Shown: in pieces, positions 19,901-52,367 of the stretch
Numbering within the stretch: the stretch's first letter is position 1
Layout of the letters: every line of letters starts with the position of its first letter
Origin: an uncultured Holophagales bacterium
GTDB taxonomy: Bacteria > Acidobacteriota > Thermoanaerobaculia > Multivoradales > UBA5704
Direction: 5' to 3'
DNA: 64,000 nucleotides
Assembly (NCBI GenBank): GCA_963842525.1
Contig: CAWJGT010000003.1
Span: forward strand, 1,408,001 to 1,472,000
The notes under the pieces: generated by a model
The model's input: only the letters and a program-made list of their open reading frames with translations
Database searches by the model: none
Told to the model about the DNA's origin: nothing
Position numbers and translations under genes: made by a program

Positions 19901-20905
19901 TGCAGGTAGGCCGCCAGCGCCCTCTTCCGTGCCCTCCCGAGCAGCTCGTGGAACGACGGGCCGCCGGCCCTGTCTCCAGCCCTGCCTCCAGGCAGGTTTC
20001 CACTCAAATCGCCGCGCAGCACCAGCATATTGACGAAGAACCCGATCAGCCCCTCGATCTCCGCCCGGTTGCGGCCGGCGACGGGCGAGCCCACGGCGAG
20101 ATCGTCCTGTCCGCTGATGCGCGCCAGGAGGGCCTGGAAGCCAGCCAGGAGCACCATGAAAAGTGTCGCTCCCTCGCGCCGGGCGAGAGCCGCCATCTGC
20201 TGGGTGAGGCCGGCCGGCAGCCGCACCGGCCAGGAGGCGCCACGTGAGCTCCGCCGGGCAGGCCGCGGCCGGTCGGTCGGCAAGTCCAGCAGCGGCGGCA
20301 GCCCTGCAAGCTCCTGGCGCCAGAACGAAATCTCCTGCTCCAGGACCTCGCCGTACAGCCAGGAACGCTGCCAGACCGCGAAATCCGAGTATTGCACCGC
20401 CAGCTCGGGCAAGGGTGACGGCTGGCCGGCGGCGAAGGCCGGATAGAGCACCCTGACCTCGCGCACCAGGACACCCATGGACCAGCCGTCGCTCGCGATG
20501 TGGTGCATGGTCAGCGCGACGACGTGGTCGCTCGCTGAGAGGCGCAGCAACACGCCGCGCAGCAATGGACCGCGCGCGAGATCGAACGGCCGGCCGGCCT
20601 CGTCTGCGGCCAGGGTGAGCGCCTCCGCCTCGCGCTTTCCCTGGGGCAGGCCTGACAGATCCACCACGGGCACCGGGAACGGCGCGGCCGGCTGGATCAC
20701 CTGGACCGGCGAGCCGTCCAAGCCCTCCAACACTGAGAAGACCGTGCGCAGCGCCTCGTGGCGGTGCACGATCTCGCTGAGAGCGCCCGCCAGCACGCCG
20801 GGGTCGAGCGGCCCTTCGACCCGTAGGGCCACCGGCAGGTTGTACAGCGGGCTGTCCGGATCGAGCTGATCGATGAACCAGAGGCGCTGCTGGGCGAAGG
20901 AGAGG
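16933..20905 (-). other. NRPS module 10, C-A(Gln-like)-T-TE
   Basis: Code DPWQFGLIDK (TycC Gln code is DAWQFGLIDK); TE motifs [16 protein letters not shown]. Confidence 0.7.
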
Positions 20906-23900
20906 GGCCGCGGCTCCTCCGATCCGCCGGCCCGCGGGATGATCGCAGACGGCGCAGACGGCGCAGACGGCGCCGGACGCTCATAGCCGAGGCGTGCGGC
21001 CATCTCCCAGGTCGGCTCACCGAGGGAGTCTGACTGCGCCTCCCGGGAGCGCTCGGCAACCCCCGCCTCGACGCCTTTGTATTGGAGAAACTTCACATCC
21101 CCGAGCATCTTTCCCTCGGCGTGGATGCCATCCGTCATCCGCGCCCGTCCCTCCTGATAGGGATTGACCATGGCGGGGTCGAGCTCGAGCCCCAAGGCGT
21201 CGCAGAGTTTCCGCAGCTCGGCTTCAGGGTGGCGCACCAGGTCCTCGAAACGGATGGGGATCTGGCGTTCCGCCGGCACATCGGCAAGATGCTCCAGGAT
21301 ATTCGCGTGGCTCGCCTGCCAGATCAGCTCGGCCAGCTCGGCCCGTTCGAACGTGTGGGGGTGACGGAAGAACAGCTCGTCGAGCTTGATCTCGTCGAAC
21401 GAGCGGATCGAGGCGTAGGGATGGCGCAGGAGATGAATATAGAAAGGTTTTTCAAACGCTTGCTCGGCCCGCCTCAGGACGGCCAGGTCGAGCGCATAGG
21501 TGGTCGTCTTATCGACCAGGGTCCGGCCGCCCAGCCACTCCTGGAGCTGGCGGTAGAAGCGCTGCGTCGTCCAGCCTTCCTCAACGGCGGCACCGACGAT
21601 CTGCCGCGCCTCCTCGACGCCGCACTGGCGCACCTCCATCACAGCGCGGATCAGACCCTCCAGCCAGAAGCTGTCGCGGCCCGGGAACGCGGCCTCGCGG
21701 TCGGCCATGGTGTTGAACGAGAGCAGCTCGAGCTCCGGGGGCGCGAAAAGCTGCGGATGGCCACCGAGCATGACGCGCAGGAGCGTCGAGCCCGCTCGCG
21801 GCGGGGAGAGGATGAAGATCGCGGGCGGGTTCTTCTCCGCCGCCAGATCCTTGGACTCCGGCAAGGGGGGGATCACCGAGCGGAAGGCGGCGATCCGGGC
21901 CAGGTCGACGCGGCCGGCCGCCGCTCGCGGCGCGCGCGCCACCTCCGCGCCGAGCGACACCTCGCCCCAGAGGCGGACGACGGTCTCCCGCTGCTCGCGC
22001 GCCAGGTAGGCTGCCATCTTCGCCACCGTGGGGGCGTCGAAGAGGACGACGACGTGGATGACCCCGCTCATCTCCCGTTGCAGCCGGTTCATCAGGATCG
22101 CGCCGGTGATCGAGTTGCCGCCGAGATCGAAAAAGGAGTCGTGGATGCCCACGCTCTCCAGGGCGAGCGCCTGGCACCAGAGGCCGGCCAGATACTCTTC
22201 GAGCGGCGTCCGCGGCGCGGCGGCCTCCGCCCCAGCGGCGGGCGCCTCCGGATCGGGCAGCGCCCGGCGGTCGACCTTGCCGTTCGCGGTGCGGGGGAAG
22301 GTCGCGACGGGCACGAAGACCGCCGGGATCATGTAGCTCGGCAGGCGGTCCTGGAGGTGGCTCCGCAGGCTGGCGACGAGGTCCGGGTCCGCTTTGCCGG
22401 CGGTCACCCAGGCGACCAGGCGCTGCGCGGTCCCCGCGCCGCGCAGGTCCACCACCGCCTCCTGGACGGCGGGATGCTCGGCGAGGACCACCTCGATCTC
22501 CCCGAGCTCGATGCGGAAGCCCCGCACCTTGACCTGATGATCGATCCGGCCGAGGAACTCGAGCGCGCCCTCCGTCCGCCAGCGCGCCAGGTCGCCGGTC
22601 CGATAGAGCCGCGCGCCCGCGGCGGCTCCCCCCTCTGTTTCAGACACCGGGTTCGGCACGAACGCCAGGGCGGTGCGCGCCGGATCGCCGAAATAGCCGC
22701 GCCCCACACCCTCGCCCCCGATGCACAGCTCGCCCGGTACGTCCAGGGGTTGCGGCTGGAGGTCCCGGTCCAGGACGTAGAGCTGCATGTTGGCCACCGG
22801 ACGGCCGATCGCCGGGCGCCAGGCCGGGTCGGCCGGCACTTCCCGGATCGGACTGAAGCTGACGTCGTCGGAGCACTCGGTGGGGCCATAGGCGTTGAGC
22901 AGCGGAATGCCGGGATGACGGGCGAGCCAGCGCCGGCAGAGCTCCGGCGGCAGGGCCTCGCCGGTGGGGATCAGCCAGCGCAGGCGCGACAGGTCGTGAA
23001 CGCTCCCCTCCTCGCCCCCGTCCATGATCTCCAGCATCGCCACCAGCAGCGAGGGGACCAGCTCTAGCACCGTCACTCCGTCGCGCACCACCGCGGCGAG
23101 CAGCGCCGCCGGATCGTGGGCGACCGCGTCCGGGTAGATGGCGACGCGGCCTCCAACAGCCAGGGCTGACAGCATCTGCCAGACGGAGATGTCGGAGCTC
23201 TGGGCGGCGTTCTGCGCCACCGTGTCCGCGTTCGTGAGGCCGAACACCTCCAGAGTGATCAGCGTGTGGTTGGTGAGGCCCCGGTGGGGGATCATCGCGC
23301 CCTTGGGCAGCCCGGTCGAGCCGGAGGTGTAGAGGACGTAGGCGAGATGGTCGAGCCCGGCTCGCACCGGCTGTGGCGCCGCCTCGCCGTCCAGGCATAC
23401 CAGGTCCTCCAGCTCCAGAATCTTGAGGAACGGCGGCGCGTCCGGCTCCGCCGCGAGCAGTTGCGGACCCAGGCCACCGCCCGAGAGAAGCAGGCGGGAC
23501 CCGCTCTGGCGCAGCACTCCCAGGGCCCGCGCGGCAGGGTGCTGGGGATCGAGCGGAAGATAGGCGCCGCCGGCCTCGAGAACCGCGAGAACCGCGGTCA
23601 CGAAACCCAGGCCGCGCGGGGACAGGATCGGCACCACCGATTCGGGTCCCACACCGTGGCCGACCAGCACCGCCGCCCAGCGGTGGGTGCGGCGCAGGAG
23701 CTCGCGGTAGGTCAGGCGCTCATCGCCGTAGACGGCGGCCACTGCTTCCGGCGTCCTCTCCGCCTGTGCCGCAAACAGATCCTGAAGGCAGACGGCGGGG
23801 GCGACGAATTGCGAGTCGTTCCACTCGCAGAGGGTCTGGTGGCGCTCGGCCGCGCCGAGGAGGAGCAGAGCGGAGAGATTCCTCCCGGGATCGGCCAGCG

Positions 23901-26900
23901 CCGCCGCGAGCAGGGCCGCGAAGCAATCGCACAGGCGGGCGATGCGCGTGCCGTCGAAAAGATCGCTGTTGTATCGCCACTGGCAGGACAGCCCCCCGTC
24001 GGCCTCGGTGGCGTTGAGTACCAGATCGAACTTGGCTGTGGCGGAGCCAGACTCCATCGGCCGGAGGCGCAGGCCGGGCAGCTCCAACACCCCCATAGGG
24101 GCGTTCTGGAGCACGAACAGGACCTGGAAGACCGGGGAATGGCTGAGGTCGCGCTCCGGGGACAGGTCGTCCACCAGCTTCTCGAACGGGAGATCCTGGT
24201 GGGCGTAGGCGCCCAGGGTGACCTCCCGAGTCCGCCCCACCAGCTCGCGGAAGGACGGATCGCCGGAGAGATCGGCGCGCAGCGCCAGGGTGTTCAGGAA
24301 CAGGCCGATCAGCGGCTCGGTCTCGGCGCGGTTGCGGCCGGCGATCGGCGAGCCGACGACCAGGTCGAGCTGGCCGCTCAACCGGGAGAGCAGGGCCGAG
24401 AGGGCGGCGAGCAGAATCATGAACGGCGTCGCGGCGGTCTCCCTCCCCAGCTCCGCGGCGCCCTGGAGTGGCAACTGTTGGAGCTGCGACCGGCCGCGAT
24501 AGCGCTGCACCGCCGGGCGCGGCCGGTCGGCAGGCAGCGCGAGGAACGGCGGTGCTCCGGCGAGGCTCTCGCGCCACCAGCCGAGCTGGGCCGCGAGGGT
24601 TTCGCCCTGAAGCCGCTGCCGTTGCCACACCGCAAAGTCCGCATACTGCACCGGCAGCTCCGGCAGCGGGGAGGGCTGGCCGGCGGTGAAGGCGGCGTAA
24701 AGTGCCGCCACCTCGCGCACCAGGATGCCCATGGACCATCCGTCGCTCGCAATGTGGTGCACGGTCAGCGCAACCACCTGATCGCGGTCTGCCAAGCGCA
24801 ACATCACGCCGCGCAGCAGGGGCCCGCGCGCGAGATCGAACGGTCGGGAAGCCTCTTCGGCCGCCAGCGCGGAGGCCAGAGACTCGCGCTCCGGAACCGG
24901 CAGTCCCGACAGATCCACCACCGCCAGCGCGAACGGCACCGCCGGCTGGATCACCTGCACCGGCGCGCTCTCCTGCACGGCAAAGACCGTCCTCAACGCC
25001 TCGTGACGGCGCACGATCTCGCCGAGGCAGAGAGCCAGCGCCGCAGAGACGAGCGGCCCTTCGACACGCAGCAACAGCGGCATGTTGTAGAGCGGGCTTC
25101 CCGGCTCAAGCTGATCGAGGAACCAGAGCCGCTGCTGGGAGAAGGACAGAGGCAGGGGTTTCTCCCGGGGCACCCGGACGAGCGGCGGCACGGACACCGG
25201 TTTGGCTGTTTGCAGCGCGGCCTCGACGCGGGCGGCGAGGTCCGCCAGCCGCGGTGCTTCGAAAAGGACACGCACCGGCAGCTCGACGCCCAGAGCACTG
25301 CGGAGACGGGATATCACCTGGGTCGCCAGCAGGGAGTGGCCCCCCAGGTCGAAGAAGTTGTCATTGGCTCCGGCCTCCCGTTCGAGGCCCAGCAGATCGC
25401 CCCAGGTGGCGGCGAGGATCTGTTCGACCTCGGTGCTCAGAGGCACCGCGTCGCCCACCGGCTCGGAGCGCAGCGTTTCCGGTGCGGGAAGAGCAGCGCG
25501 GTCCACCTTGCCATGAACGGTCAGAGGCAGGCGGTCCAGGAGCACGACGGCCGAGGGGATCATGTACTCCGGAAGCTCGCCTTGCAGGAAGCGGCGCAGC
25601 TCCGGCACCAGGCGCCGCGCCACCTTGTGGCGCAACGGATCGTTGGCGTAGGCGTGCGCCGGCAACCCCGCGCGCTGCCTCGGTGGCGAGGGCACCGCCA
25701 CCCCATCGGCACCGAGCCGCAGCACTGCGGCAAAGCGGTATGGATCCCTGGGATCCCAGGTCAGGCCGACCGAATAGCCGAGCTGCTCGCCGAGCTGCCA
25801 CAGCTCCTCGGGATCGATCGCTTCCGCGGAGGCCGCGCGTTCCGCGATCACCTGCCGCAGCTCCCCCACCGTCCCCCCCTCGGATCCGACCCCCTGGTCG
25901 AGCCCCGCCAGGAGCGTCACCGCCGCCGCTTCGACGGCGAGCCGACGGTTGGGGATCGCCGTCAAGGCCAGCGTCCGCGGACCAGCCTCCAGCCGCTCGG
26001 CCAGCTCGGAGAGCGACAGGTTTTGTGCCTGCCAATCGAGCCAGTCGAGAGCGTCGTCCGGCTCTTGCAGCGCGCCGACATGGAGCACGGCGTCATAGCG
26101 GAAACGGCTCAGCTCGTTGTGATACCGGCCGCGCTTTACCAGGATCTCGACGTGCCGGATCTCCGGCAATCGCCGCGCCAGGGCGAAGAAGAAGCCGGGG
26201 TCGACCAGCAACTCCTCCTCGGTCGCCAGACGCCGAAGAATGCGCTGCCGGAGATCCGCCACCGGGAGATCGTCCGCCGAACGGTACAGCTCGACCGAGG
26301 TCTGGAGCGATTCGAGGAGTGGCAGGCTGCGCAGGTCGCCAAGGAAGACCCGGCCGCCGTGAGCCACGCTCGCGACCGCCCCTTCGACGACACGGATGAG
26401 ATAGTCGATCCCGGGGAAATACTGCGTCACCGAGTTGAGGACGACTGTGTCGAAGTCCCCCGCGGCCACACCGCTCCAGTCGTCTGCCGTCCGGCATTCG
26501 AGGGAGACGCCCGGCAGACCGCCTGTCCGCTCGATCTGTCGGCGGATTCCTTCCAGGGCGACAGACGAAAAGTCGGTGCCTTGATAGATCTCTGCGTGCG
26601 GCGCCACCCGGAACAGCAGCAGGCCGGTACCACAGCCGACCTCCAGTATCCGGCGTCCGCCGAGAGCGAGCACTCGTTCTACCGTCCGGTCCACCCACTC
26701 ACGCATCTCCTCGGCAGGGATCGGAGCGTCCGTGTAGCTGCTGTTCCACCCTTCGACGTTGAAGGTGGCGTCGACCTCGATCCCAGTGGGTTCTGAGGCG
26801 CCGTAGGTCTCGTCGTAGAGAACCTGCCAGGCGGCGATATGCTCCGCATCGGCGGCTGCCTCCGACAGCATGCAGCGCACCACGTAGGCCACCAGACGCT

Positions 26901-29900
26901 TGCCCGACGGATCGTCCTGCACGGCGGCCACCGCCTCGCGCACTTCCGGATGGCGGCCGAGGGAGCTCTCCACCTCCCCCAGCTCGATGCGGAATCCGCG
27001 CACCTTGACCTGGTGGTCGAGACGGCCGAGAAACTCGATGTTGCCGTCGGCCAGGCGCCGCACGCGGTCACCGCTGCGGTAGAACCGCTCACCGCCGCAG
27101 AGGACGTACTTCTCCGCGGTCAGCTCGGCGCGGCCGAGATAGCCGCGCGTGACGCCCCGGCCGCCGATCCACAGCTCGCCCGGCACGCCGATGGGCAGCA
27201 GCTCTCCGTCCGCGCCGCGACCGTTCCGAACATCGAGCACGGCGCCAGCCAAGGGCCGGCCGAGCAGCGGCCTCGCCGGTTCGGGAGGCGGCGGCACCGG
27301 GTGCGCGGTGCACAGGATGGTCCCTTCGGTCGGCCCGTAGAGCACCCAGACTCGCGCGGCTGGGAAGGTCTCTCGCAGATCCTCCAACAGCTCGCCAGGA
27401 ACGGCGTCGCCGCCGACGAACACCGCGCGCAGTCTTTGGATATCAGCGCCCCGCCGGCGAATCGCGTCGACGACCTGCCGCATCAACGCCGGCACGGCGT
27501 GCAGACAGGTCATCTCCCCGAGACGGTCAGCCAATCCCTCCACATCCAACGTCGGCCGCAGCGGGAAGAGCACCGCCGTGCCGCCGCTGAGCAACGGCGA
27601 CAGCAGCTCGAAGAGGAAGATGTCGAACGTCGAACTCGCCAGGCAGGGCATGCGGTCGCCTGTTCCAAAACCGAACAAGGCCCGGGTGGCGGCGAGGGTG
27701 GCCGCGAGCATGCCGTGCTCCACCTGCACCGCCTTGGGCCGGCCCGTCGTGCCGGAGGTGTAGATCAGATAGGCGAGGCTGTCCGCGGCAGGCAGGCCGA
27801 GAGGCTCGTCCCCGTCGCCCTCCAGCTCTTCCAAGAGAAGAATTTCTCCACCGTACGGCGGGAGGCTCGGGAGAAGGTGCCGCTGAGTGACCAGCAGCAG
27901 GACCGCCGCATCCTCCAGCAGGAAAGCGACGCGCGCCCGGGGATGCGCGGGATCCAGGGAGAGCCAGGCGCAACCGGACTTGAGGATGGCCAGCACCCCT
28001 ACCACCAGGTCCGGGGTGCGTTCGACGCAAAGCCCCACTACCACTCCCGGTCCGGCTCCCAGCGCGCGCAGGCTCCGGGCCAGCCGGTCCGACCGGCGGT
28101 CGAGCGCGCGGTAGGTGAGGCTCGCCTGCTCGTCCCCGGCAAGAGCCACCGCCACAGCCTCGGGGGCGCGGCGCGCCTGCGCCGCGAACAGCTCGATGAC
28201 ACCCGGTGCGGCCGGAACGGGCGTGTCGTTCCACTCGGCACGGAGCTGGTGGCGCTCGCCGTCCGACAACAGCGGAAGATCCTGGAGGACCCGGCCAGGA
28301 TCGGCCGCACCCGCCGCGAGGAGCGTCGTCAGATGGCCGGCGAGACGCAGGATCGTGGCGGCATCGAAAAGATCGGCCGTGAAATCGAGCCGGCCTCCCA
28401 GCTCTCCGTCGGCCTCCGTGAAGGTCAACCCCAGCTCGAATTTCGCCGTCCCCGCATCCCGCAAGGAAGAGGTGATCGACAGGCCTTCCAGGTCGACCCT
28501 TTCGTACGGAAAGTTCTGCAGCGCGAACATCACCTGGAACAGGGGCGTGTGTGCGAGGCTCCTCTCCGGGGCGAGATCCTCGACCAGCCTTTCAAACGGC
28601 ACGTCCTGGTGCATGTAGGCCGCCAGCGCCGTCTCGCGCACCCGGCCGAGCAGCTCCCGGAACGACAGCTTTCCTGTCACTTGACCGCGCAGCACCAGAG
28701 TGTTGACGAAGAACCCGATCAGTCCTTCGATCTCCACGCGGTTGCGCCCCGCCACCGGCGAGCCGATCGCGAAATCGTCCTGGCCGCTCACGCGCGCCAG
28801 GAGAGCCTGGAAGCCGGCCAGGAGCACCATGAACAGCGTCGCTCCCTCGCGCCGGGCGAGAGTTTCCAGAGTCCGCGTGAGCCCGGCCGGAACCCACACA
28901 GGGCAGGTGCCGCCGCGGAAGCTCTGCACCGCGGGACGCGGACGGTCGATGGGCAGCTCCAGCACCGGCGGCAGGCCCGCGAGCTGCCGGCGCCAGAAGC
29001 CGATCTCCTCCTCCAGAACCTCGCCATGCAACCAGGAGCTTTGCCACAGAGCAAAATCCGCATACTGCACGGACAGCTCCGGGAGCGGCGACGGCACATT
29101 CTGGGCGAACGCTGCATAGAGCGTCGTGGCCTCGCGCACCAGGATACCCAGCGACCAGCCGTCGCTCGCGATGTGGTGCATCGTGAGCGCCGCCACGTGC
29201 TCCGCTTTTTTCCCAGAGCCATCGAGCCGCAGCAGCACGCCGCGCAGCAGCAGATCGCGCTTGAGATCGAACGCGCGGCCGGCCTCGTCTCCCACCAGAA
29301 CGGGAACCAGTTTTTCGCGTACGGCTTCCGGCAATCCCGACAGGTCGACCACGGGCAGCGCGAACGGCGCCGCTGGTTGGATCACCTGCACCGGCGCGCC
29401 TTCCAGGCCCTCTGACACCGCAAAAACCGTCCGCAACGCCTCGTGGCGGCGCACGACCTCACCGAGGCAGAGCGCCAGCACGCCACGATCCAGTGGCCCC
29501 TCGACGCGGAGCGCGATGGGGATGTTGTAGAGCGGGCTGCCCGGTTCGAGCTGATCGATGAACCAGAGACGCCGCTGGGCGAACGACAGCGGCAAGGGCT
29601 CTTCCCGGGGGAACGGAAGCAGGGGCGGAGCGATCGCCGTGGTACCGGCCCGCATCGCCTCGACCCGGGCGGCGAGGTCCGCCAGCCGCGGAGCTGTGAA
29701 GAGATCGCGCAGAGGCAACTCGACGCCGAAGGCGCTGCGCAGCCGCGACACCACCCGGGTGGCCAGCAGGGAGTGCCCTCCCAGATCGAAGAAGCTGTCC
29801 GTCGCTCCGACCTGTTCGCGACCGAGCAGCTCGCCCCAGATGCCGGCAACGACCTCCTCGACCGGCGTCCGCGGCGCGACGAACGCTTCGTCAGAGCTTC

Positions 29901-32900
29901 TGCCACTCCGGAGCCGGCAACGCCTTCCGGTCCACCTTGCGGTTGGGCGTCAACGGCAGCTCGGCGAGAAGCGTGAAGGTGGCCGGCACCATGAACTCCG
30001 GTAACCGCTCGCGCAGGAAGGAGCGCACCTCAGGCACCGCCAAGGTGATCCCGGCGGCCGGCACCAGGTAGGCCGCCAGGAAGCTTTCCGGTCTCACCAC
30101 GACGACCGCCTCGCGGACCCCCGGGAAGCCGCCGAGCACCGACTCGATCTCCCCCAGCTCGATGCGGAAGCCGCGGATCTTCACCTGCGTATCGGCCCGC
30201 CCGGCGAACACCGCTTCGCCGTTCGGCAGATAGCGTCCGAGGTCGCCCGTCCGATAGAGATCGGCTGCGAAGCGCTGAGAGGTGAGCTGCGGATCGCCCA
30301 GATATCCAAGGGCGATGTGCGGGCTCCGCACCGAAACCTCGCCCATCTCGCCGATGCCGGCCAGCCCGCCGCCCGGGTTGAGCACCAGGAGCTGGACGTC
30401 CGGAATACCGCGGCCGAGCGGCAGGATCTCCCGCGGCTCGCGGTCGTCGGCAACGTGGTAGCCGACGGCGCGTTGCGTCTCGGTGGAACCGTAGTAGTTC
30501 ACGCAGGTGACGTTCGGGGCCAGCGAGCGCAGCCGCGCCACGTCACGGCGGGTGAGGACATCCCCCACCAGGAACGCATAGCGCAGTGACGGGACCTCAA
30601 GGCTGAGGACACCGAGATCACCCGGCGCTTCGGTGGTCAGCACCTGACCCAGAGCGGGCGTGAGATGGGTGATCGTCACCGCCGCACGGCGCATCCAGGC
30701 GGCGAGCGCGCCCGGATCGTCCATCGTTTTCGGATCGGGGATCACCACCGCAGCGCCGAGCTGTAACGGAGTGAACAGGTCGCGGTGCAGCGGATCGTGC
30801 GCCAGGCCCGACAGCATGCTGAAACGGTCGGCGGCCGACAGATCAAAGCGCTGGCGCAGCCACGGGATGAAATGCGACAGCGAGCCGTGGCGGCCGAGCA
30901 CCCCCTTCGGCACGCCCGTCGAGCCGGAGGTGAACGCCACATACGCGGTGTCGTCCGGTCCGATCTCCACGGGCGCAGGAGCTGCCGGGAAAGCCGAAAG
31001 GACATCCATTTCCCCGGCATTGTCAGCCTTCGCCGGCAGGGTCAGGCGGCAGGAGCAACTGAGAGCGTCGAGAGCGCCGTCGATCTCCACCGGGACCGGA
31101 CCGGCCGCCGCGACGCGGAGCCAGGCGGCTGGCCGCGCGATCTCCAGCATCTGGGCCTGGCGCGCCGCCGGATAACGAGGATCGAGCATCAGGAAGGTGG
31201 CCCCTGCCTTGAGAGCTCCCAGCACGCCCCAGACCAAAGGCGCGCTGCGGTGAGCCCAGAAGGCCACCACGTCCCCGCGCCGCACGCCACCCGCCTGGAG
31301 GAACGCGGCGAGCCCGTCGGAGCGCTCGTCGAGCTCGCCGTAATTCCAGGACTCCGCCGGATCCGCCGCCGCGAGCGCCCCGGGGTCTCGTCGGGCATGG
31401 CGGGCGAAGATCTCGTGGACCGCGCCCTCCCAGGCTGCCGACAGCTCCGCGGCCGGATCGGGCAGCAGCTCACGCGACGCGGCGGTGACCAGTGCGTGCC
31501 GCCCCACCGGCTCCTCCGGCCGCTCCAGCGCCTGCTCCAGGAACAGCGCGAGCTGGTCGAGCAGGTCCTCCATCCGCGCCGCGTCGAACAGGTCGGCGTT
31601 ATAGACCAGGTTCACCTGGACTCCGCCGTCTCCTTCGCTCAGATAGAGCGTCATGTCGAGCTTGGAGAGAGGCGCCGACGGCGCCATCCCCGCCCCGTCC
31701 AGCTCCAGGCCAGGGAGGCGCATCGCGGCGGTCGGTACGTTGACCAGGTTGACCATCACCTGGAAAAGCGGCGTCCGTGAAAGGTCGCGCTGCACGGGGA
31801 GGGCCGCGAGGACCGCTTCGAAAGGCACGTCCTGATGAGAATAGGCACCGAGGGTGACCTCCCGCACCTGCTCCACCAGACTGCGGAAGCCAGGCTGGCC
31901 GCCGAAGCCGGTGCGCAGGACGAGCGTATTCAGGAAGCAGCCGATCAGCTCCTCGGTCTCTACCGCGCGACGACCGGCCACCGGCGCGCCCACCAGGATG
32001 TCATCCTGACCGCTGTGGCGGTGCAGCAACGTCTGGATCGCGGCGAGGAGCGTCATGAACAGCGTGGCGCCGTGGGAGCGGCCGAACCGGGTCAATCGCC
32101 CTGTGAGCTCGGAAGAGAGGATGCGCGCGGCACCCCCGCCGCGATAGGTCTGGACGGGCGGCCGAGGGCGGTCGATCGGCAGATCGAGCGGCGATATCTG
32201 CGATGTCTCGCCGCCCAGGAGATCGAGCCACCAGGCGAGCTCCTCCTGCCGCGTTCCCGCGACCAGCTCGCGCTGCCACACCGCGAAGTCGGCGTATTGC
32301 ACCCGCAGTTGGCCGAGAGACGACGGACGATTCTCGGTGAAAGCGCCGTACAGCTCGCCGATCTCGCGCACCAGGAGCTGGAGCGACCAGCCGTCACAGA
32401 CCACGTGATGCACCACCATCAGGAGCTGGTGGCGCTCGGGTTCGAGCCGCAGGAGCGCCGCGTCGAGCAGCGGCCCGCGCGCGAGATCGAAGCGGTGCAG
32501 CGCGTGCTCCGCGGCGAGCCGCTCCGCCTCCGCCAGACGCCCGGCGCCCGGCAACGCCGCCAGGTCGACGACCGGCAGCCCAATCTTCAGGTCTGGCAGG
32601 ATGTGCTGGCGGGGGACGCCGTCCACCACCTGGAAGACCGTGCGCAGCACCTCGTGGCGCTCCACCAGACCGCGCAGCGCAGCGCCGAGCGCGGCTCTGT
32701 CGAGACGACCGATGAGCCCGACCTCGCCGGGCATGTTGAAGGTGGGCTCCCCCGGGTCGATGCTGTCGAGGAACCAGAGGCGCTCCTGTGCGAACGACAG
32801 CGGCAGGGGACCTTCCCGGGAGACCGCAACGAGCGGCGGAGCCGCCGGTGCCTGACCGCCGCGCCGGGCCTCCTCGACGACCGCCGCCAGCTCCGCCACG

Positions 32901-35900
32901 GTCGGCCGCTCGAACAGGACGCGCAACGGCAACTCGATACCGAAGGCGCTGCGCAGACGCGAGATCGCCCGCGTCGCCAGTAGCGAATGCCCGCCCAGCT
33001 CGAAGAAATGGCCGTCCCTCCCCACCAGCTCGAGGCCGAGCACCTCGGCGCAGATGCCGGCGAGGACCTCCTCGACCGGCGTCCGCGGTGCCACGTAGCC
33101 CCCCTCACCGGCCTGCGGCCCGGGAGCTGGCAAGGCTCTCCGGTCCACCTTGCCGTTGGGCGTCAGCGGCAGCTCCGGAAGCACCACGAAGGCGGACGGC
33201 ACCATGTAGTCCGGCAGCTTGTCCCGCACGGACCGTCGCAACCCTTCGATTTCAGTGTCTCCGAGATCGCCGACCACATAGGCCACCAGGCGGCGGTCGC
33301 CCGACGTCCCTCCGGACCGGTCCTCGCGCACCGCCACCACCGCCTCATGGACCCCGGGTAGCGACAGCAGCAACGCCTCGATCTCGCCGGGCTCGATCCG
33401 GAAGCCGCGGATCTTCACCTGATCGTCGAAACGGCCGAGGAAGTCCAACTCACCGTTCGCCAGGAACCGCACCTTGTCGCCCGTTCGGTAGAGGCGGGCC
33501 CCCGGCTCCTGACCGCACGGGTGCGGCACGAAACGCTCGGCGGTGAGATCGGGCCGTCCCAGGTAGCCGCGCGCCAGGCATTCGCCGCCCAGGTAGAGAT
33601 CCCCGAACACGCCTGCCGGGGCCGGCATCAATCCATGTTCGGTGCCGGGCTCCAGGACGTAGGCCGTGCTGTTGCCGATCGGCCGGCCGATCGATGGATA
33701 GACTGTCCATTCCTCAGGATCTGAACTCAAGGTGAACGCGGTTGCCACGTGCGTCTCGGATGGACCGTAGTGGTTGTGGAAGGCACACCCCGGAAGGCGC
33801 CGCAGCAGCGAAGCCATCGCCCGGTTCGTCTGCAACCGCTCGCCGGTCGTGGTGATCTCGCGAAGCGGCGGCAGATCCTCGCGGCCGGCGTAAATCTCTG
33901 CGATCTGTTGCAGCACCACAACCGGCAGGATCGCCTTCTCGATCCGCTGATCGACAAGCAACCCGGCGAGCGCCACGAGATCGCGGCGCAGCTCTTCCGG
34001 CACCACCACCAGCGTGCCGCCGGAGCCCCAGCAGGCGAACATCTCGTGGAAGCTCGCGTCGAAGGAGAGCGAAGCGAATTGCAGCGTCCGTGCTCCGCCG
34101 AGGAGCGTCGCGAGATGCCAATCGATCAGATTTCTCAACGCCCCCTGGGAGAGCGAAATCCCCTTGGGCCGGCCGGTCGAGCCCGAGGTGTAGATCACAT
34201 ATCCCAGGTTCTCCGCCACCGGCTCGCTGCCATACGCAGCAACAGCGCCGCTTTCGTCGTCCCGGTCTTCCCCCTCTTGAGCATCGAGCAGGAGAACCTG
34301 AGCGTTCCCGGCCGGCAGCCGGTCGCGCAGCGGCTCCTGGGTGAGCAGCACCGGAGCGCGGGTGTCGTCGAGCATGAAGGCCAGGCGTTCCGCCGGATAC
34401 TGCGGATCGAGCGGCACGTAGACGCCGCCGGCCTGAAGGATGCCCAGCACGCCGGCGATCATGTCCATCGACCGTTCGACCATCAGGCCCACCAGCACGT
34501 CCGGGCCGACGCCGAGCCGGCGCAGACGCCGGACGAGACGGCTCGCCCGGGCGTCGAGACCGGCGTAGGTCAGCTCCTCGTTTCCAAAGACCACCGCGAC
34601 GGCCTCCGGAGTCCGCTGGAGCTGCGTCGCGAACAGCTCGTACACAGCGCGCGGCGCCGTGCCCGATGCGGTGTCGTTCCATTCGATGAGGATCTGTCCG
34701 CGCTCCGCCGGGCTCAACAGCGGCAGCACGGAGAAAGGCTCGTCCGGAGCGCCGGCCGCCGCCGCCAGCAGGCGCCCGAAATGTCCCGCCAGCCGGTCGA
34801 CGGTCGCGGCGTCGAACAGATCGGTGGCGTATTCGATCTCTCCGGCCAGCGCGCCGTCGTCCCCGGCGAGGGTGAGCGTGAGATCGAATTTCGCCGTCGT
34901 CCCCTTCACTTCCACCGGCAGCAGGCGCAGGCCGCGGATCTCCAGTCTCTCCGCAGGAGCGTTCTGCAAGACGAGCATCACCTGGAACAGAGGCGTGTGG
35001 GTGAGGCTTCTCTCCGGGGCGATCTCCTCCACCAGCTTTTCGAACGGCACATCCTGGTGCACATAGGCCGCCAGCGCCGTCTCGCGCGCCCGGTCGATCA
35101 GCTCGCGGAACGTGGGTGAACCTGTCAGGTTTCCCCGCAGGACCAGAGTGTTGACGAAGAACCCGATCAGACCTTCGATCTCGATGCGGTTGCGCCCGGC
35201 TATGGGAGAGCCCACCGCGAGATCGGTCTGCCGGCTGGTGCGCGCGAGCAGAGCCTGAAAACCGGCGAGGAGAACCATGAAGAGCGTCGCCCCCTCGGAC
35301 CTGGCGAGAGCCTCCATCTGCCGGGCGAGCCCGGCGGGCAGCCGCACCGGCCGGACGGTGCCGCGGTAACTCTGCACGGCGGGGCGCGGCCGGTCCGTGG
35401 GCAGCTCCAGGAGCGGCGGCAGCCCGGCGAGCCGGCGCCGCCAGAAGTCGATCTCTTCCTCCAAAACCTCGCCCCGCAGCCAGGAGGTTTGCCACACCGC
35501 GAAATCCGCGTACTGCACCGGCAGCTCGGGCAGGGGCGACGGCCTGCTCTCGGCAAAGGCGGCGTAAAGAGCCGCCACCTCGCGGATCAGGACCCCCATG
35601 GACCAGCCGTCGCTGACGATGTGGTGCAGGGTCACCGCGAAGGCGTGATCCCTCTCCGCGAGACGCAGCAGCAGGCCGCGCAGCAGTGGGCCGCGGGTGA
35701 GATCGAACGGGCGGGACACCTCCTTACCGACAAGGACCGGGAGCAGTGCTTCTCTCGCCGTCTCCGGCAGCCCCGACAGGTCGACCACCGGCAGCGCGAA
35801 CGGCGCCGCCGGCCAGATCACCTGCGCCGGCGAGCCCTTCTCCCCCTCCAACACCGCGAAGACCGTGCGCAGCGCCTCGTGACGGCGTACGATCTCGCCG

Positions 35901-38900
35901 ATGCAGAGGGCCAGCACCACAGGAGAGAGCGGCCCTTCGATGCGCAGCGCCACGGGGACGTTGTAGAGCGGGCTCTCCGGCTCGAGCTGATCGATGAACC
36001 AGAGGCGCTGCTGGGCGAAGGAGAGGGGCAAGGGACCCTTGCGCTGGTCCGGAGCGATCGGCTTGAGGGGCGGAGTGAGCCGGCCCGCACCGGCCGTCCG
36101 CAACGCGGCCTCGATCCTGGCCGCGAGCTCCGCTAGGGTCAGGGCCTCGAAGAGAGTGCGCAGCGACAGCTCGACCCCGAATGTGCTCCGCAGGCGCGAC
36201 ATCATCTGCGTCGCCAGCAGCGAATGCCCGCCCAGGTCGAAGAAGTGATCGGTAGACCCCACCCGTTCGACCCCGAGCACCTCGGACCAGATGCCGGCGA
36301 GAAGCTCTTCGACCGGCGTCCGCGGCGCTGCATAGCTCTCCTCGGAACGCAGCAGCTCGGGCGCCGGCAAAGCCTTCCGGTCCACTTTGCCGTTGGGCGT
36401 CAGCGGCAGCGCGGCGAGAGCCACGAAGGTACCGGGCACCATGTAGTCCGGCAGCCGCTCCTGCAACGACCGGCGCAGCGCGTCGGCCGCGATGGCGCCG
36501 GGCGCGCCGGCCACATAGGCCACCAGGCGCCGGTCGCCGGGCTCGCTTTGGGATCGACCCTCGCGCACCACGACCGCCGCCTCGCGCACGCCGGGCAACG
36601 ACGCCAGCACCGCCTCGATCTCGCCCGGCTCGATGCGGAAGCCGCGGATCTTCACTTGGCCGTCCAGCCGGCCGAGGTACTCCAGCAGGCCGTCGGGCCG
36701 CCGCCGCACCAAGTCTCCCGTGCGGTAGAGCCGCCCCCCGGATCGGCTCCGGACGCGGGGCCGAAGGGGTCCGGCACGAACCGTTCGGCGGTCAGCTCCG
36801 GCCGGGTGTGATAGCCGTGCGCCAGACCGTCCCCTCCCAGGTAGAGCTCGCCGCGCACACCCACCGGCTGCTGGAGGAGTTCCGCGGAGAGGACGTACGC
36901 GGTCCCGTTGGCGAGCGGCTGCCCGATGGGGACGGTCTCGCCCGGCGGCACCGAGCCAACCCGGTGCCACGTGGCGAAGGTCGTCGCCTCGGTCGGGCCG
37001 TAGAGATGAAGGAGATGGGCAGGCGGGCCGTCCCGCAACACGTCGCGGACCGCCGCCGGATCGACCATCTCGCCACCGAAGAGCACATAGCGCAGCTCTG
37101 CGAGCCCGGCGGGCATCTCGCGGGCGAGCTGGTTGAACACGGCGGTGGTCAGGAACAGCACGCCAATACCTTCACGGTGCAGCACGGCGGTCAGGCTGCC
37201 AGGCGCGAGAAGCGCCGCGCGCTCGATGCCGACCAGCCGGCTGCCGTTGAGCAACGCACCCCAAATCTCGAACGTGGCGGCGTCGAAGGAGCTGTTGGAC
37301 CCCTGCGCCACGTGGTCGTCCGGGCCGAGCTCGATGTAGTCGGTACCGCGCACCAGGCGTACGACGGCGCGGTGCGGCACCACCACCCCCTTCGGCCGGC
37401 CGGTCGAGCCCGAGGTGTAGATGACGCAGGCGGGATCTCCGGGCGAGGAGAAGCTCGCGGGCCGCGGCCCGGCGGCAGCGGGCTCCGCCTCCCCCGGCTC
37501 GCCAGCCGCCGCGCCGCGCAGCAGCTCGACGCGCAGGCCTGCGCGGGCCGGGAGATGTCCGGCCAGATGCTCCTCTGCGACCAGCACGGCGGCGCCAGCG
37601 TCCTCCAGCATGAAGACGAGCCGTTCGTGCGGATAGGCGAGGTCGAGCGGCATGTAGGCCCCGCCCGCCTCCAGGATGCCGAGCATTCCCACCACCATCT
37701 CCGGCAGGCTTTCGGCGCAGAGGCCCACCACGGAGCCGGGACCGACGCCCGAGCCGCGCAGCCGGTGCGCCAGCCGGCGCGCTTCGCGGCCGATGTGCCG
37801 ACGGGTGAGCTCCCGGCCGCCGGAGGCCACAGCCACGGCGTCCGCAGAGCGCTCGGCCAGCTCGGCGAACAGCTCGTGGATGCAGGCCGTCGGATAGTCC
37901 CGCGCCGTGGCGTTCCAGCTCGCCAGCTGAAGGGTCTCCGCGGCGGAGAGCAGGTGGACCTCCGCGACGCGGCGGTCCACCTGCTCGATCAGGCCCGTGA
38001 GCAGCCGCTCGAAGCACGCCACCATTCGATCGACGGTCGTGCCGTCGAACAGATCGGTGGCGTATTCGACCGCTCCGGCCAGCTCGCCGTCGTGCTCGGC
38101 GAAGCTGAACGAGAGATCGAATTTCGCCGTCGTCCCGGCCTCCCCCACCGGCCGCAGTCGCAGATCGTGCACCGGCAGGCTCTCGACAGGAAGGTTCTGC
38201 AGCACGAGCATCACCTGGAACAGGGGTGTCTGCGCGAGGCTCCTCTCCGGGGCGAGCTCTTCGACCAGCCTCTCGAACGGTAGATCCTGGTGCATGTAGG
38301 CCGCGAGCGCCGTCTCGCGCACCCGGCCGAGGAGCTCGCGGAACGAGGGCTGTCCCGTCAGATCGCCGCGCATCACCAGGGTGTTGACGAAGAACCCGAT
38401 CAGCCCCTCGATCTCCACCCGGTTGCGCCCCGCAACCGGCGAGCCCACCGCGAGGTCGTCCTGGCCGCTGAGGCGCGCCAGCAGTGCCTGGAAGCCGGCG
38501 AGGAGCACCATGAACAGCGTCGCTCCGGTGCGCCGGGAGAGATCCTCCATCTGACGGGTGAGCCCGGCGGGCAGCCGCACAGGCCGCGAAGCGCCACGGA
38601 AGCTCTGGACCGCGGGCCGCGGGCGATCGAGGGGCAGCTCCAGGAGCGGCGCCAGGCCCGCGAGCTGACCCCGCCAGAAGGCGATCTCCCCCTCCAGGAT
38701 CTCGCCGCGCAGCCAGGAACGTTGCCACACCGCGAAATCCGCATACTGCACGGGCAGCTCCGGTAGCGGCGAGGGCCTGCCCGCGGTGTCCTCAGCCAGC
38801 GCCGCATAGAGAGCCGCGACCTCGCGCACCAGAATGCCCATCGACCAGCCGTCGCTCACGATGTGGTGCATGGTCAGCGCCAGGACGTGATCCGCCGTTT

Positions 38901-41900
38901 CCCCTGGAGCGGCCAGTTGCAGCAAGACTCCGCGCAGCAGGGGGCCGCGCGAGAGAGCGAAGGGACGGGAGGCCTCTTCGCCGGCCAGAGCGAGGGCCAG
39001 CGATTCGCGCTCTGTCTCGGGCGCCGCCGACAGGTCGACCAGGGGCAGCGCGAACGGTGCCGCCGGTTGGATTACCTGCACCGGCGAGCCCTCCCGCACG
39101 GCGAAAACCGTGCGCAACGCCTCGTGACGGCGCACGCACTCCGCGAGGCAGAGCGCCAGCGCCGCGTGGTCCAGCGGCCCTTCGATGCGCAGCACGACCG
39201 GCATGTTGTAGAGCGGGCTGTCCGGCTCGAGCTGATCGATGAGCCACAGGCGCTGCTGCGCGAACGACAGCGGCAGAGGACCCGCGCGGAGAGTTGGAGC
39301 CAGAGGCGCGAGCGGCGGAGCAAGCTGGCCCGTGCCGGCCCGCCATGTCCCCAGCGCGGCCTCGACCCGGGCCGCGAAATCCGCCAGCACCGGAGCCTCG
39401 AAGAGGGTGCGCAGCGGCATCTCGACCCCGAAGGCGCCGCGCAGGCGCGACGTCACCCGGGTCGCCAGGAGCGAGTGGCCCCCCAGCGCGAAGAAATGGC
39501 CGTCCGCCCCGATCTGTTCCAGGCCGAGCACCTCAGCCCAGATGCCGGCGAGGACTTCTTCGACCGGCGTCTTCGGCACCACAGAGCTCTCCTCGGCGCT
39601 CTGCTGCTCAGGAGCCGGTAAAGCCTTGCGGTCCACCTTGCCGTTGGGCGTCAAGGGCAGCGCCGCGAGCGGCACGAACGTGGCAGGCACCATGTAATCC
39701 GGCAGCCGTTCCTCCAATGACCGGCGCAGCGCGTCCGCCGCAACGTCTCCCACCACATAGGCCACCAGCCCCCGACCGCCGGATCGATCCTCACGCGCTG
39801 TTACGACCGCCTCGCGCACTCCTTCCAGCGCCGACAGCAAAGCCTCGATCTCCCCCAGCTCGATGCGGAAGCCGCGGACCTTGACCTGATGATCCAGGCG
39901 GCCGAGGAAATCGAGCGAGCCGTCGGGCCGCCAGCGGACACGATCGCCCGTACGGTAGAGCCGCGCGCCGGCCTCTCCCGCCCCTGCCCGGAATGGATCC
40001 GGGATGAACCGCTCGGCCGTCAGGTCCGGGCGGTGCAGGTAACCCCGAGCCAGCCCTGAGCCACCGAGATAAAGCTCTCCCGCGACGCCTACCGGCTGCG
40101 GCTCCATGTCCGCGCCAGGTGCCAACACATAGGCCTTCGTGGCCGCGACCGGACGGCCGATCCCTGGAGCTTCTCCGCTCTCCCTCTCCACCGGCAGCGC
40201 CGTCGAATAGGTCGTATCCTCCGAAGGGCCGTAGAGGTTCCACACCCGCTCCACCGTTCCTGTCGCATACAGCCGGTCCGCCAAAGAGCGCGGCAACGGC
40301 TCTCCGGCCAGGTTCACCGTCCGGATGGAAGCTCCCAGGCTTCCCGCACGCACCAGCTCGGCCATCGCCGAGGGGACCGTATTGACCAGCGTCACCCGCC
40401 CGCGGGCGGGGAGAGACGGCAGCTCCAGGGCATTCTGCGCCAGGATCACCGTGCCACCCTGGGAGAGCGGCACGAACAGCTCGAAAACCGACAGGTCGAA
40501 GGAGAGCGCCGTAGCGGCGAGCACGCCGGCCAGCTCCTCGCACGAGAACACGCCGCCGGCCCAGCGCACCAGCTCGACGGCGCTGCGGTGGGTGACGGCG
40601 ACGCCCTTCGGCGTCCCCGTCGAGCCCGAGGTGTAGAGCACGTACGCCAGGTTCTCCGGAGTCGAGCGGCCGGCCGGCCGGCCGGAGCCGGCGGTGTCCA
40701 TGAGATCGTCATCCATCAGGACCAGCGGCCCGCTCCACGGCAACCCGGCCGTCAGGCCCGCGGTGCTGAGGACGATCGAGACCCGGGCTCCCGCCAGCAT
40801 CGCGTCGAGGCGCCGGCGCGGTTGCCGGGGATCGAGCGGCAGATAAGCGGCTCCGGTCTTGAGGATGGCGAGGAGAGCTGTCACCAGGCCCGCCGAACGC
40901 TCCAACCAGACACCGACGATCACCTCCGGTCCGGCACCGTAGTCACGCAGTCGAGACGCCAGCCGCTCGGCCGCCTGATCGAGATCGCGGTAGAGGACCT
41001 CCTGCGTGCCATCGATGAGCGCCACGGCCTCCGGGGTCCGACGCGCTTGCGCCTCGAACAGCTCGTGCAGGCATGCAGCTTCCTGCACAGGCGAAACCGC
41101 CGTGTCGCTCCACTCCACGAGGAGCTGCTGGCGCTCGCCCGCGCCGAGCAGCGGCAGCGCCGCAACCGGCAGGTCCGGCGTTGCCAGAGCCGCATCGAGC
41201 AGGCGCTCAAAATACCCGGCCAGGCGGTCGGTCGTCGCGGCGTCGAACAGATCGGTGGCGTATTCGACCTCTCCGACCAGCCCGCCGCTGTGCTCCGTGA
41301 GGCCGAGCAGAAGATCGAACTTCGCCGTCGTCGACACCCCTTCGATCAGCCACAGGCGCAGGCCCTGGATCTCCAGGGTCTCGAGAGGAACGTTCTGCAA
41401 CACGAACATCACCTGGAACAAGGGGGCGTGCGCAAGGCTCCTCTCGGGCGACAGCTCCTGGACCAGCTTTTCGAACGGCACGTCCTGGTGCAGGTCAGCG
41501 GCCAGCGCGGTCTCGCGCACCCGGCCAAGCAGCTCGCGGAACGAGGGCTCACCAGATAAATCTCCGCGCAGCACCAGGGTGTTGACGAAGAACCCGATCA
41601 GCTCCTCGGTCTCCACCCGGTTGCGCCCCGCGATGGGCGAGCCCACCGCGAGGTCGTCCTGGCCGCTGATGCGGGCCAACAGAGCCTGGAAGGCAGCGAG
41701 CAGCACCATGAAAAGCGTCGCTCCCTCACGCCGGGCGAGGGCTTCGACCTGCCGAGTGAGAGCAGCGGGCAGGTGCACCGGCCGCGTGGCTCCGCGGTAG
41801 CTCTGGGCCGCCGGTCGCGGCCGGTCGGTGGGGAGCTCCAGGAGAGGCGGCAGGCCCGCGAGTTGCCGGCGCCAGAAGGAGATTTCGCTCTCCAGGAGCT

Positions 41901-50900: not shown

Positions 50901-52363
50901 TGTCGCTCGCCCGCAGCGAGCAGCGGGAGCTCCGAAAGACGCTTGCCCGGATTCGCCACGACTCCGGCCAGCAGGCCTACGAAATGCCCCGCCAGGCGCT
51001 CGATCGTCGCGCTGTCGAACAGGTCGCAGCTGTACTCCAGGCGGCCGAGCAGGGTGTCCCCCGACTTCTCGAACCGGCAACTGAGATCGAACTGCGCGGT
51101 CGCCAGGTCGAGGATGGCGGGCTCTACGGTGAGCCCCGGAACCTCCAGCTCGGACGCCGGCGTGTTCTGCAGCACGAACAGGACCTGGAACAGAGGGTTG
51201 TAGCTGAGGCTGCGCTCCGGCCGCAGCTCCTCGACCAGTGTCTCGAAGGGGAGCTGGCCATGGCTCTGGGCTTCCAGAACCTCATCGCGGACGCGGCCGA
51301 GCAGGACTCGGGCCGAAGGGTTGCCGGACAGGTCGACACGCAGCACGAGGGTGTTGAGGAAGAACCCGATCAGTCCCTCGATGTCGCTGCGGTCGCGGTT
51401 GGCCACCGGGTAGCCAATCACCAGGTCCTGCTTCCCGGTATAGCGCCCGAGCAGGGCGAGGAAGGCGGCAAGGAGGGTCATGAACAGGGACACCCCCTCC
51501 CGCCGGCTCAACCGGCCCACGCTCTGCGCCAGCTCCGCGGGCAACACGAGGAGCCGCGTCGCTCCGCGATCGCTGCGCATCGCCGGCCGGGGGTGGTCGA
51601 ACGGCAGCTCCAGCACCGGATCGGCCCCTGCCAGCTTGGCGCGCCAGTGAGCCAGCTCCTTCTCCAGCACAGCTCCCTGGAGCCACCCCCGCTGCCAGGC
51701 GGCGTAGTCCGAGTATTGGAAGGGGAGATCCAGCAGGGGGGACCGGCCACCGCGGAGGAAAGCGCCGTAGAGCGTCCACACCTCGCGGACCAGCACGCCG
51801 AGCGACCAGCCATCGGCGATGGCATGGTGAAGCGTCAGGACGGCCTTATGCTCGCGGCGATCCAGCCGCAGCAGAAGGACGCGCAGCAGGGGCCCCGCGT
51901 CGAGGTCGAAGGTGCGGCGTGCCTCGGCCAGGATCAGATCCCCGGCCAATTGCGACGCTTCCGCCGCGGGCAGGCCGCTCAGGTCGACCAGCGGCAGGAG
52001 GAGCGGCCCCGGTGCAGAGATGCTCACCCATGGCTCGCCGCCAAGCTCGATGAACGTGGTGCGGAGCGTCTCGTGACGCCGCGTCACCTCGGTCAGGGCG
52101 CGGCCGAGGACCTGGATGTCGAGCGCTCCGGCGAGGCGAACCTCCACGGCGATGTTGTAGAAAGGACTCTCCGGCTCCAGGCGCTGCAGGAACCAGAGAC
52201 GCTGCTGGGCGAACGAGAGCCGGCGGTTCCCAGGGCCCTGGAGAGGAGTGATCGGCGGCTCTCCCTCCAGATCGATCCCCTCCTCGGCGAGGAGGACAGC
52301 GAGCATCTCCCGCTGCTCTGCGGAGAGACCCACCGCCGCGCCCAGACGCTCGATCTCGCTCAA
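16933..52363 (-). CDS. 10-module NRPS of about 11,800 aa: (C-A-T)x7, C-A-NMT-T, C-A-T-ST, C-A-T-TE; split by indels near 50262, 36735 and 29899
   Basis: Four ORF-track pieces join at conserved motifs ([34 protein letters not shown]); ten C, A and T motif sets; TE GWSSG; TTG start after GGGAG. Confidence 0.9.
20980..25155 (-). other. NRPS module 9, C-A(Dab/Dap)-T-sulfotransferase
   Basis: Code DIWEITADDK; ST motifs [30 protein letters not shown]. Confidence 0.8.
25210..29595 (-). other. NRPS module 8, C-A-N-methyltransferase-T, substrate uncertain
   Basis: Code DIFHFGLILK; NMT motifs [27 protein letters not shown]. Confidence 0.7.
29650..32805 (-). other. NRPS module 7, C-A(LYS2-like)-T, predicted Aad/Glu
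   Basis: [37 protein letters not shown]. Confidence 0.7.
32860..36030 (-). other. NRPS module 6, C-A-T, Pro-like scaffold with atypical pocket
   Basis: [10 protein letters not shown] motif; code DAHITTHVAK. Confidence 0.55.
36100..39275 (-). other. NRPS module 5, C-A-T, predicted Ile/Val
   Basis: Code DAFFLGLTFK. Confidence 0.65.
39350..42500 (-). other. NRPS module 4, C-A-T, predicted Ala
   Basis: Code DLFNNALTYK. Confidence 0.75.
42580..45850 (-). other. NRPS module 3, C(HHIAFNG)-A-T, predicted Dab/Orn
   Basis: Code DVGEVSSIDK, close to the polymyxin Dab and tyrocidine Orn codes. Confidence 0.65.
45950..49070 (-). other. NRPS module 2, C-A-T, predicted Ile/Val
   Basis: Code DAFFLGVTYK. 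Confidence 0.7.
49130..52230 (-). other. NRPS module 1, C-A-T, predicted Gly
   Basis: Pocket code read by eye: DILQLGLVWK. Confidence 0.75.
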
Positions 52364-52367
52364 GTCG

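Follow-up and report, generated by a model that had tools for sequence, protein, structure and literature searches.

Adenylation (A) domains of nonribosomal peptide synthetases (NRPSs) normally commit an amino acid to the peptide backbone through its alpha-carboxyl group. The question raised by the locus described here is whether one such domain instead builds its residue in through the side chain. The window, meaning the whole stretch of 64,000 nucleotides that was analysed (G000:C3:1408001-1472000), belongs to a 9.95 Mb genome in 34 contigs that is 96% complete. Its GC content is about 70%, and its nearest database relatives are metagenome-assembled genomes (MAGs) of Thermoanaerobaculia and other Acidobacteriota; the host of its 11-module polyketide synthase (PKS)/NRPS is an Acidobacteriota-like soil bacterium. 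The domain in question, A8, resembles Lys2, the aminoadipate reductase of the fungal lysine pathway. Side-chain (iso) linkage of glutamate (Glu) or 2-aminoadipate (Aad) as residue 8 is the best reading of its sequence and a reasonably probable one.

The A8 domain and its resemblance to Lys2

A8 is a Lys2-clade adenylation domain of 519 aa at 29894..31450 on the minus strand, placed by TIGR03443, motif coordinates, alignment, and tree. Its motifs lie in the frame of a 2359-aa open reading frame (ORF) at 29891..36970, minus strand. On that strand are a 10-residue motif at 30878-30907, a 20-residue motif at 30764-30823, THLTPALGQ at 30644-30670, an 11-residue motif at 30542-30574, and another 10-residue motif at 30464-30493. 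The motif map also contains the core motifs named A3, A5, A8, and A10. The ten specificity positions were taken from an alignment to the standard core motifs, with the usual assignment of the PheA positions, and give the code DPRHFVYRAK.

Among NCBIfam models, the best match to A8 is TIGR03443 (Lys2), at 525.5 bits and an E value of 2.5e-157 over profile positions 176-650. Its score on the generic A-domain model TIGR01733 is 360.8 bits, above the cut-off of 317.4. The Lys2 likeness is not a matter of chance, given the E value on TIGR03443 and the bimodal phmmer scores described below; the score is below the curated TIGR03443 cut-off of 1030.1 bits, so A8 does not count as a Lys2 equivalog.

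Lys2 controls came from metagenome contigs scanned with a degenerate pattern encoding a Lys2 motif. The scan gave at least 118 matches, 80 loci were fetched, and six long uninterrupted ORFs (1357-1442 aa) were chosen as Lys2. These score 1854-2164 bits across the whole TIGR03443 profile, against the cut-off of 1030.1. All six carry the code DPRHFVMRA, which A8 (DPRHFVYRA) matches at eight of nine positions, of which just six are an independent test because the search pattern had fixed positions 322, 330, and 331. A8 is 43-48% identical to the six Lys2 domains, and the A3-, A4-, and A5-region motifs are near-identical.

The PKS/NRPS as a whole occupies 16936..59924 on the minus strand, as delimited by Pfam scans and the motif map. 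It consists of a ketosynthase-acyltransferase-carrier-condensation protein (KS-AT-T-C), an A domain with an inserted methyltransferase and a carrier domain (A(MT)-T), ten C-A-T modules, an in-line sulfotransferase after T10, and a terminal thioesterase (TE). The A3 motifs of 11 A domains are found at 54926, 50398, 47241, 43950, 40632, 37416, 34189, 30931, 27759, 23328, and 19053, which makes the Lys2-like domain the eighth, downstream of the KS-AT-T module. Codes were read for nine of the ten other A domains (DLYNLSLIWK, DAFFLGVTYK, DVGEVSSIDK, DLFNNALTYK, DAFFLGLTF-, DAHITTHVAK, DIFHFGLIL-, DIWEITADDK, and DPWQFGLIDK), and all nine are ordinary; that of the domain at 50398 is unreadable because a frameshift cuts the domain.

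An earlier, sequence-only reading of this DNA had quoted five motifs and an approximate code for the domain, had contrasted it with nine other A domains, and had counted ten A domains in all, with the Lys2-like domain supplying residue 7. All five motifs are located at 30464-30907 (minus strand), and the alignment returns the same code. The contrast also holds for every readable code, with ten other domains in place of nine, and the numbering is superseded by the count of 11, which makes the residue number 8.

The PDB contains no close solved structure for A8; LgrA was considered and set aside, since its 428 bits come from adding up two ordinary A domains at 204.5 and 220.8 bits. The ESM Atlas, with C-domain clusters excluded, returned generic A-domain clusters only and no Lys2. 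A literature search for the printed codes 'DPRHFV' and 'DPRHSG' had no match, the motif EPRNIVEF does not occur among the literature matches listed, and matches to 'DPRH' mostly concern ADPRH.

Phylogeny and abundance of the clade

Domains from 123 database proteins scored individually against A8 with phmmer have a bimodal distribution: 126 reach 400 bits or more, 163 fall below 300, and three lie between. The identical code is present in 22 of 125 high-scoring domains (query included), and nearly all the rest follow DPR[HN]....[RQ][AS]K. When a DPRHFALLAK-type domain served as the query of a further database search, a neighbouring clade came to light, whose codes include DVRHFALLAK (54 domains) and DARHFSLMVK.

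Microcystin synthetase provides iso-linking reference domains: McyE installs D-iso-Glu, and the second A domain of McyB (McyB-A2) installs D-erythro-beta-methyl-iso-Asp. The mcy cluster was taken from a Microcystis genome by way of a published mcyE primer (locus L070). Two of its six A domains, McyE (DPRHSGVVGK) and McyB-A2 (DARHVGIFVK), have both R239 and H278, and the other four have ordinary codes that lack R239 and H278. A8 carries the same R239 and H278 pair.

All trees are IQ-TREE 'quick' searches with support from the SH-like approximate likelihood ratio test (SH-aLRT). For the first tree, one in three of the 118 high-scoring domains and one in five of the 89 low-scoring ones were sampled, and all 46 rows of Lys2-like domains lie on one side of a branch with support 100. 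In the second, each distinct code was represented by a single domain, with at most 20 Lys2-like, 16 neighbouring-clade, and 16 ordinary domains. In it, one branch (91) splits 24 of 24 ordinary domains from 42 of 42 R239/H278-coded domains, and another (98) divides the Lys2-like clade, the neighbouring clade, and McyB-A2 from the ordinary domains and McyE. McyB-A2 joins the neighbouring D[VPA]RH..L[LM] clade (95) on a branch of length 2.1.

In the tree with Lys2, the neighbouring-clade rows and the ordinary database rows were each cut by half, and five of the six Lys2 were used. Here, 23 bacterial domains and five Lys2 (L095, L099, L110, L119, and L142) group with SH-aLRT 100, apart from ordinary A domains. 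Within this group is a subclade with R330 (support 99) that holds 19 bacterial domains, A8 among them, and the five Lys2, and that excludes a bacterial ...FGFQAK subclade. Eukaryotic Lys2 is thus nested among bacterial elongation-module A domains (support 99 and 100), and this nesting suggests that the reductase of the fungal lysine pathway came from a bacterial NRPS. The groupings are unchanged after removal of the long Mcy branches.

A8 also stands apart from ordinary alpha-activating domains, including those with the Gln/Glu-like codes DPWQFGLIDK and DAVQIGFIDK (support 90-98). The sequence-only reading had described a Lys2-like domain and had proposed a phylogeny as the check, with grouping among ordinary alpha-activating domains as the outcome that would refute it. 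A8 falls in one clade with genuine Lys2 (SH-aLRT 100 and 99, eight of nine code positions), and because it is separated from the ordinary domains at 90-98, no refutation on grounds of grouping arises. That reading had further described use in an elongation module. The C-A-T-C context is confirmed, and such use is common rather than exceptional, since 115 of 123 clade members examined follow a C-domain motif. Downstream, 40 of the 123 members continue with T-C, 57 with T and then the protein end, and six with a possible TE.

Lys2-type A domains are abundant in the NRPSs of uncultured soil bacteria. The genome itself has at least six, at 388-550 bits on TIGR03443, and every other A-domain match is at 289 bits or less; the six codes are DPRHFVYRAK (two), DPRHLVLRAK (three), and DPRHVAVRAK (one). 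In one paralog (L005, G000:C34:262863-267812), an A8-like domain with 83% identity and the same code is followed by T and a ketosynthase, so that it would hand the same building block to a PKS. Six of the 123 proteins (P0007-P0009 and P0012-P0014) have two Lys2-type modules in a row, e.g., DPRHLILRAK twice, and would make two consecutive side-chain-linked residues. Three of these bimodular NRPSs (P0008, P0009, and P0012) have a thioesterase match. A related-locus search of genomes returned 41 loci with only six members of the clade, every one of these from a MAG, and none of the clade members seen lies in a cluster with a known product.

Substrate, linkage, and integrity of module 8

In the favored reading, A8 would act like Lys2 and the related R239/H278-coded domains and adenylate an alpha-amino dicarboxylic acid at the distal carboxyl, on the side chain; Aad and Glu are the candidates. 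This side-chain carboxyl would be loaded as a thioester on T8, a carrier domain in the neighbouring frame at 29643..29898, minus strand (GGHSL at ~29781; three-frame translation and motif map). The condensation domain of the module, C8 (31451..32818, minus strand; HHVVCDG at ~32410; Pfam Condensation and motif map), would acylate the free alpha-amino group with the upstream peptide. The downstream domain C9, with approximate limits 28270..29600 on the minus strand (HHIASDG at 29178; motif map and Pfam), would then pass the T8 side-chain thioester to residue 9. With activation at the distal carboxyl, the backbone would therefore pass through the side chain by way of an isopeptide link, and the alpha-carboxylate would stay free.

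The two halves of C8 have different affinities. The C-terminal half has a median score of 230 bits against C domains that precede a Lys2-type A domain (n=120; 10th percentile 197), 198 bits against those before a neighbouring-clade A domain (n=116), and 167 bits against those before an ordinary A domain (n=242; 90th percentile 194). The corresponding medians of the N-terminal half are 166, 143, and 146 bits. In its C-terminal half, C8 varies together with the Lys2-type A domain, which is consistent with the ADA region of Lys2 being what remains of such a half-domain, as the excerpt of PMC7884236 proposes for ACV synthetase and Lys2.

The direction of activation is the central issue. A8 could instead activate the alpha-carboxyl of Asp, Asn, Glu, or Gln and form an ordinary peptide bond, its likeness to Lys2 reflecting ancestry. 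A8 shares both D235 and K517 with ordinary domains for alpha-amino acids, module 8 is a standard C-A-T module, and C9 is unspecialised; a 2025 compilation, in the part available, also puts DPRHVSLLAK among 'Asn-activating' domains (PMC12283262). This alternative is nevertheless unlikely. A8 is separated from ordinary domains including the Gln/Glu-like ones, and the R239/H278 domains of known product that were checked (Lys2, McyB-A2, McyE, and Zmn16-A1 of zeamine biosynthesis) all act on a side-chain carboxyl or install a side-chain-linked acid, for Zmn16-A1 according to the excerpt of PMC5811116. As for the compilation, its available part calls DPRHLALLAK alpha-aminoadipic acid citing a 2013 prediction alone, whereas nuclear magnetic resonance (NMR) identifies that residue as side-chain-linked Asp.

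Several observations weigh against side-chain linkage of Glu or Aad at residue 8. The activation direction of A8 is judged from its relatives, and A8 keeps D235, the usual alpha-amino ligand. McyE scores only 160-200 bits against A8 and sits on a long separate branch, and SH-aLRT is the sole measure of support in the trees. Since the search pattern set Lys2 positions 322, 330, and 331, the independent matches are D235, P236, R239, H278, F299, and V301. Position 322 is Y in A8 and M in Lys2, and Y, L, F, S, A, and V all occur there within the bacterial clade, so that the substrate of A8 may differ from that of Lys2. C9-type domains are unspecialised, with medians of 416, 381, and 375 bits by upstream A type and overlapping ranges. 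Finally, the 96%-complete genome has no L-lysine 6-transaminase (LAT; best score 129.9 against 520.8), no LysX (55.4 against 275.6), and no LysW above cut-off, in profile searches whose controls responded as expected and whose scope excluded the saccharopine and lysine-dehydrogenase routes.

Among the two candidate substrates, the code, which is closest to that of Lys2, points to Aad. Aad is weakened as a substrate because LAT, LysX, and LysW were not found, and a primary metabolite such as Glu is at least as likely because six such modules occur in one genome. A8 might also activate some other carboxylic substrate that is neither Glu nor Aad, such as a modified or beta-substituted diacid, a D-acid, or a non-amino dicarboxylate. 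The variable position 322, where A8 has Y and not the M of Lys2, would suit this, as would the coexistence in the genome of the DPRHFVYRAK, DPRHLVLRAK, and DPRHVAVRAK code families and the missing aminoadipate supply genes. Eight of nine compared code positions equal Lys2, however, and two Arg and a His in the pocket would suit an acidic substrate; such a different acid is rather improbable.

Iso-linkage of Glu or Aad by A8 also presupposes a working module, and the window as assembled has an apparent stop (29891-29893) between A8 and T8. It is created by a single extra assembly base at 29898. In X1 record 4 and X2 record 12, near-identical contigs that stem from public soil runs of two separate studies, one base is missing at this position, and each contig differs from the window around the site by one other letter and one gap. 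Dropping base 29898 joins A8 to T8 in frame. In an ortholog from another Acidobacteriota MAG (L019), A-T-C is continuous in one 3190-aa frame, and its codes follow the same order as in the window (DAH-TTHVAK, DPRHFVYRAK, and DIFHFGLIL-). Because both spanning contigs are without the base and L019 is continuous, the stop is an assembly artefact, and module 8 is for this reason probably intact.

Two more frame breaks lie inside A domains A6 and A2, at 36655-37171 and 50006-50277 on the minus strand; given the extra base at 29898, they too are probably assembly errors. If the A8 stop and the two A-domain frameshifts were real lesions, module 8 or the whole cluster would be a pseudogene. The window has three breaks (29894-29949, 36655-37171, and 50006-50277), and other NRPS frames in the genome are open for up to 10975 aa. 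Decay is still very improbable, because both near-identical contigs, from independent soil runs, do not have the extra base and the ortholog stays open over its full 3190 aa.

Other features of the cluster concern tailoring and the start of the assembly line. A sulfotransferase domain (PF13469, 99.7 bits; window 21175-21825, minus strand) is built in between T10 and C11. Such an in-line arrangement is unusual for an NRPS; PF13469 or PF00685 is also present in four related NRPS proteins that have Lys2-type A domains (P0020, P0056, P0111, and P0174). Methyltransferase (MT) domains (PF08242) interrupt A1, which has the Cys-like code DLYNLSLIWK, and A9, at window positions 52371-55562 and ~25500-27800 on the minus strand. 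An in-frame stop at 55563-55565 (minus strand) separates the KS-AT-T-C and A(MT)-T proteins, so the module is seemingly split between C and A; the C domain beside the stop scores just 30.6 bits on Pfam.

A penicillin-amidase family gene (PF01804, 517 bits; window 12593-14881, minus strand) adjoins the cluster. The presence of this gene and of a KS-AT-T module at the N terminus suggests that the assembled product loses an acyl group, a step known for pyoverdine. Also nearby are a separate ketosynthase at 10744-12576 (plus strand), which has the KS-AT linker and no acyltransferase match, and a short ORF at 15035-15985 (minus strand) with a KS fragment and a carrier domain, which adjoins a methyltransferase at 15978-16874.

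Comparison with known systems

If A8 works as favored here, residue 8 of the lipopeptide would be a Glu or Aad that is joined through its side chain and keeps its alpha-carboxylate free, and the predictions of structure, charge, and protease resistance for the product would change. Standard predictors would mis-draw such residues as ordinary links. Because the domain type is abundant and no member seen has a known product, one assay on the clade would annotate hundreds of modules.

McyE is like A8 in the DPRH start of its code, its GRH, HDPxxR, HxTP, and YGSTET motifs, and its C-A-T-C elongation context. Unlike A8, it lies outside the Lys2 clade on a branch between ordinary domains and the clan of RH-coded domains. 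The parallel with McyE drawn by the sequence-only reading therefore extends to the shared DPRH code and not to membership of the Lys2 clade, from which McyE is set apart by a long separate branch. McyB-A2 shares with A8 an RH code, a place on the same side of the 98-supported branch, and an elongation module with a side-chain-linked acid. It differs in belonging to another subclade, in its very long branch (2.1), in having no R330, and in its C4 acid substrate.

Zmn16-A1 of zeamine biosynthesis in Serratia plymuthica has the code DPRHLALLAK, for which NRPSpredictor predicted 2-aminoadipate according to the excerpt of PMC3547906. The residue was identified by NMR as 'gamma-aspartate', linked through the side chain, in the excerpt of PMC5811116. 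Zmn16-A1 has the DPRH code and resembles the neighbouring-clade codes DPRHFALLAK and DVRHFALLAK; unlike A8, it occupies an initiation position and has L330 in place of R330, and only its code indicates where it would fall in the tree. Serratia, Dickeya, and Xenorhabdus proteins are absent among the matches listed for the search with the DPRHFALLAK-type domain, and the fabclavine papers, in the parts available, do not state the linkage of residue 1. Module 1 of ACV synthetase (ACVS), which supplies delta-L-alpha-aminoadipyl, and the first A domain of SulI (sulfazecin) are both said to activate the distal carboxyl of Aad or Glu.

Lys2 (TIGR03443) of the fungal lysine pathway has the architecture ADA-A-T-R, with its A domain in the clade of A8. 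The C-terminal half of the upstream C domain resembles the N-terminal ADA region of Lys2, and paralogs in the genome match TIGR03443 positions 2-752. Unlike Lys2, A8 is preceded by a full C domain (HHVVCDG) and followed by T and C (HHIASDG), with no reductase. The A8 module thus departs from the Lys2 architecture, in which A-T is followed by a thioester reductase and there is no catalytic C domain. Lys2 reduces its acid to an aldehyde, whereas the A8 module would build a peptide.

A common origin of ACVS and Lys2 from an elongation module has been proposed in the excerpt of PMC7884236, and the origin of the fungal lysine-pathway reductase is left open in the excerpts of PMC2823734 and PMC7884236. 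The nesting of Lys2 offers a testable answer to this question. Tentatively, fungal Lys2 may have arisen from a bacterial elongation module of the A8 clade, with the C-terminal half of the C domain becoming ADA and the downstream C domain giving way to the reductase. The same tentative proposal would make the clade, with hundreds of members in Acidobacteriota, Gemmatimonadota, Chloroflexota, and cyanobacteria and with two modules in a row in some proteins, a source of widespread, unrecognised peptides with gamma-Glu or delta-Aad isopeptide backbones. The chemistry of A8 would not be new in kind, because microcystin already offers examples of elongation modules in which an RH-coded A domain installs a side-chain-linked acid. 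Less expected is that the bacterial Lys2 clade is so large and that the eukaryotic Lys2 domains fall within it.

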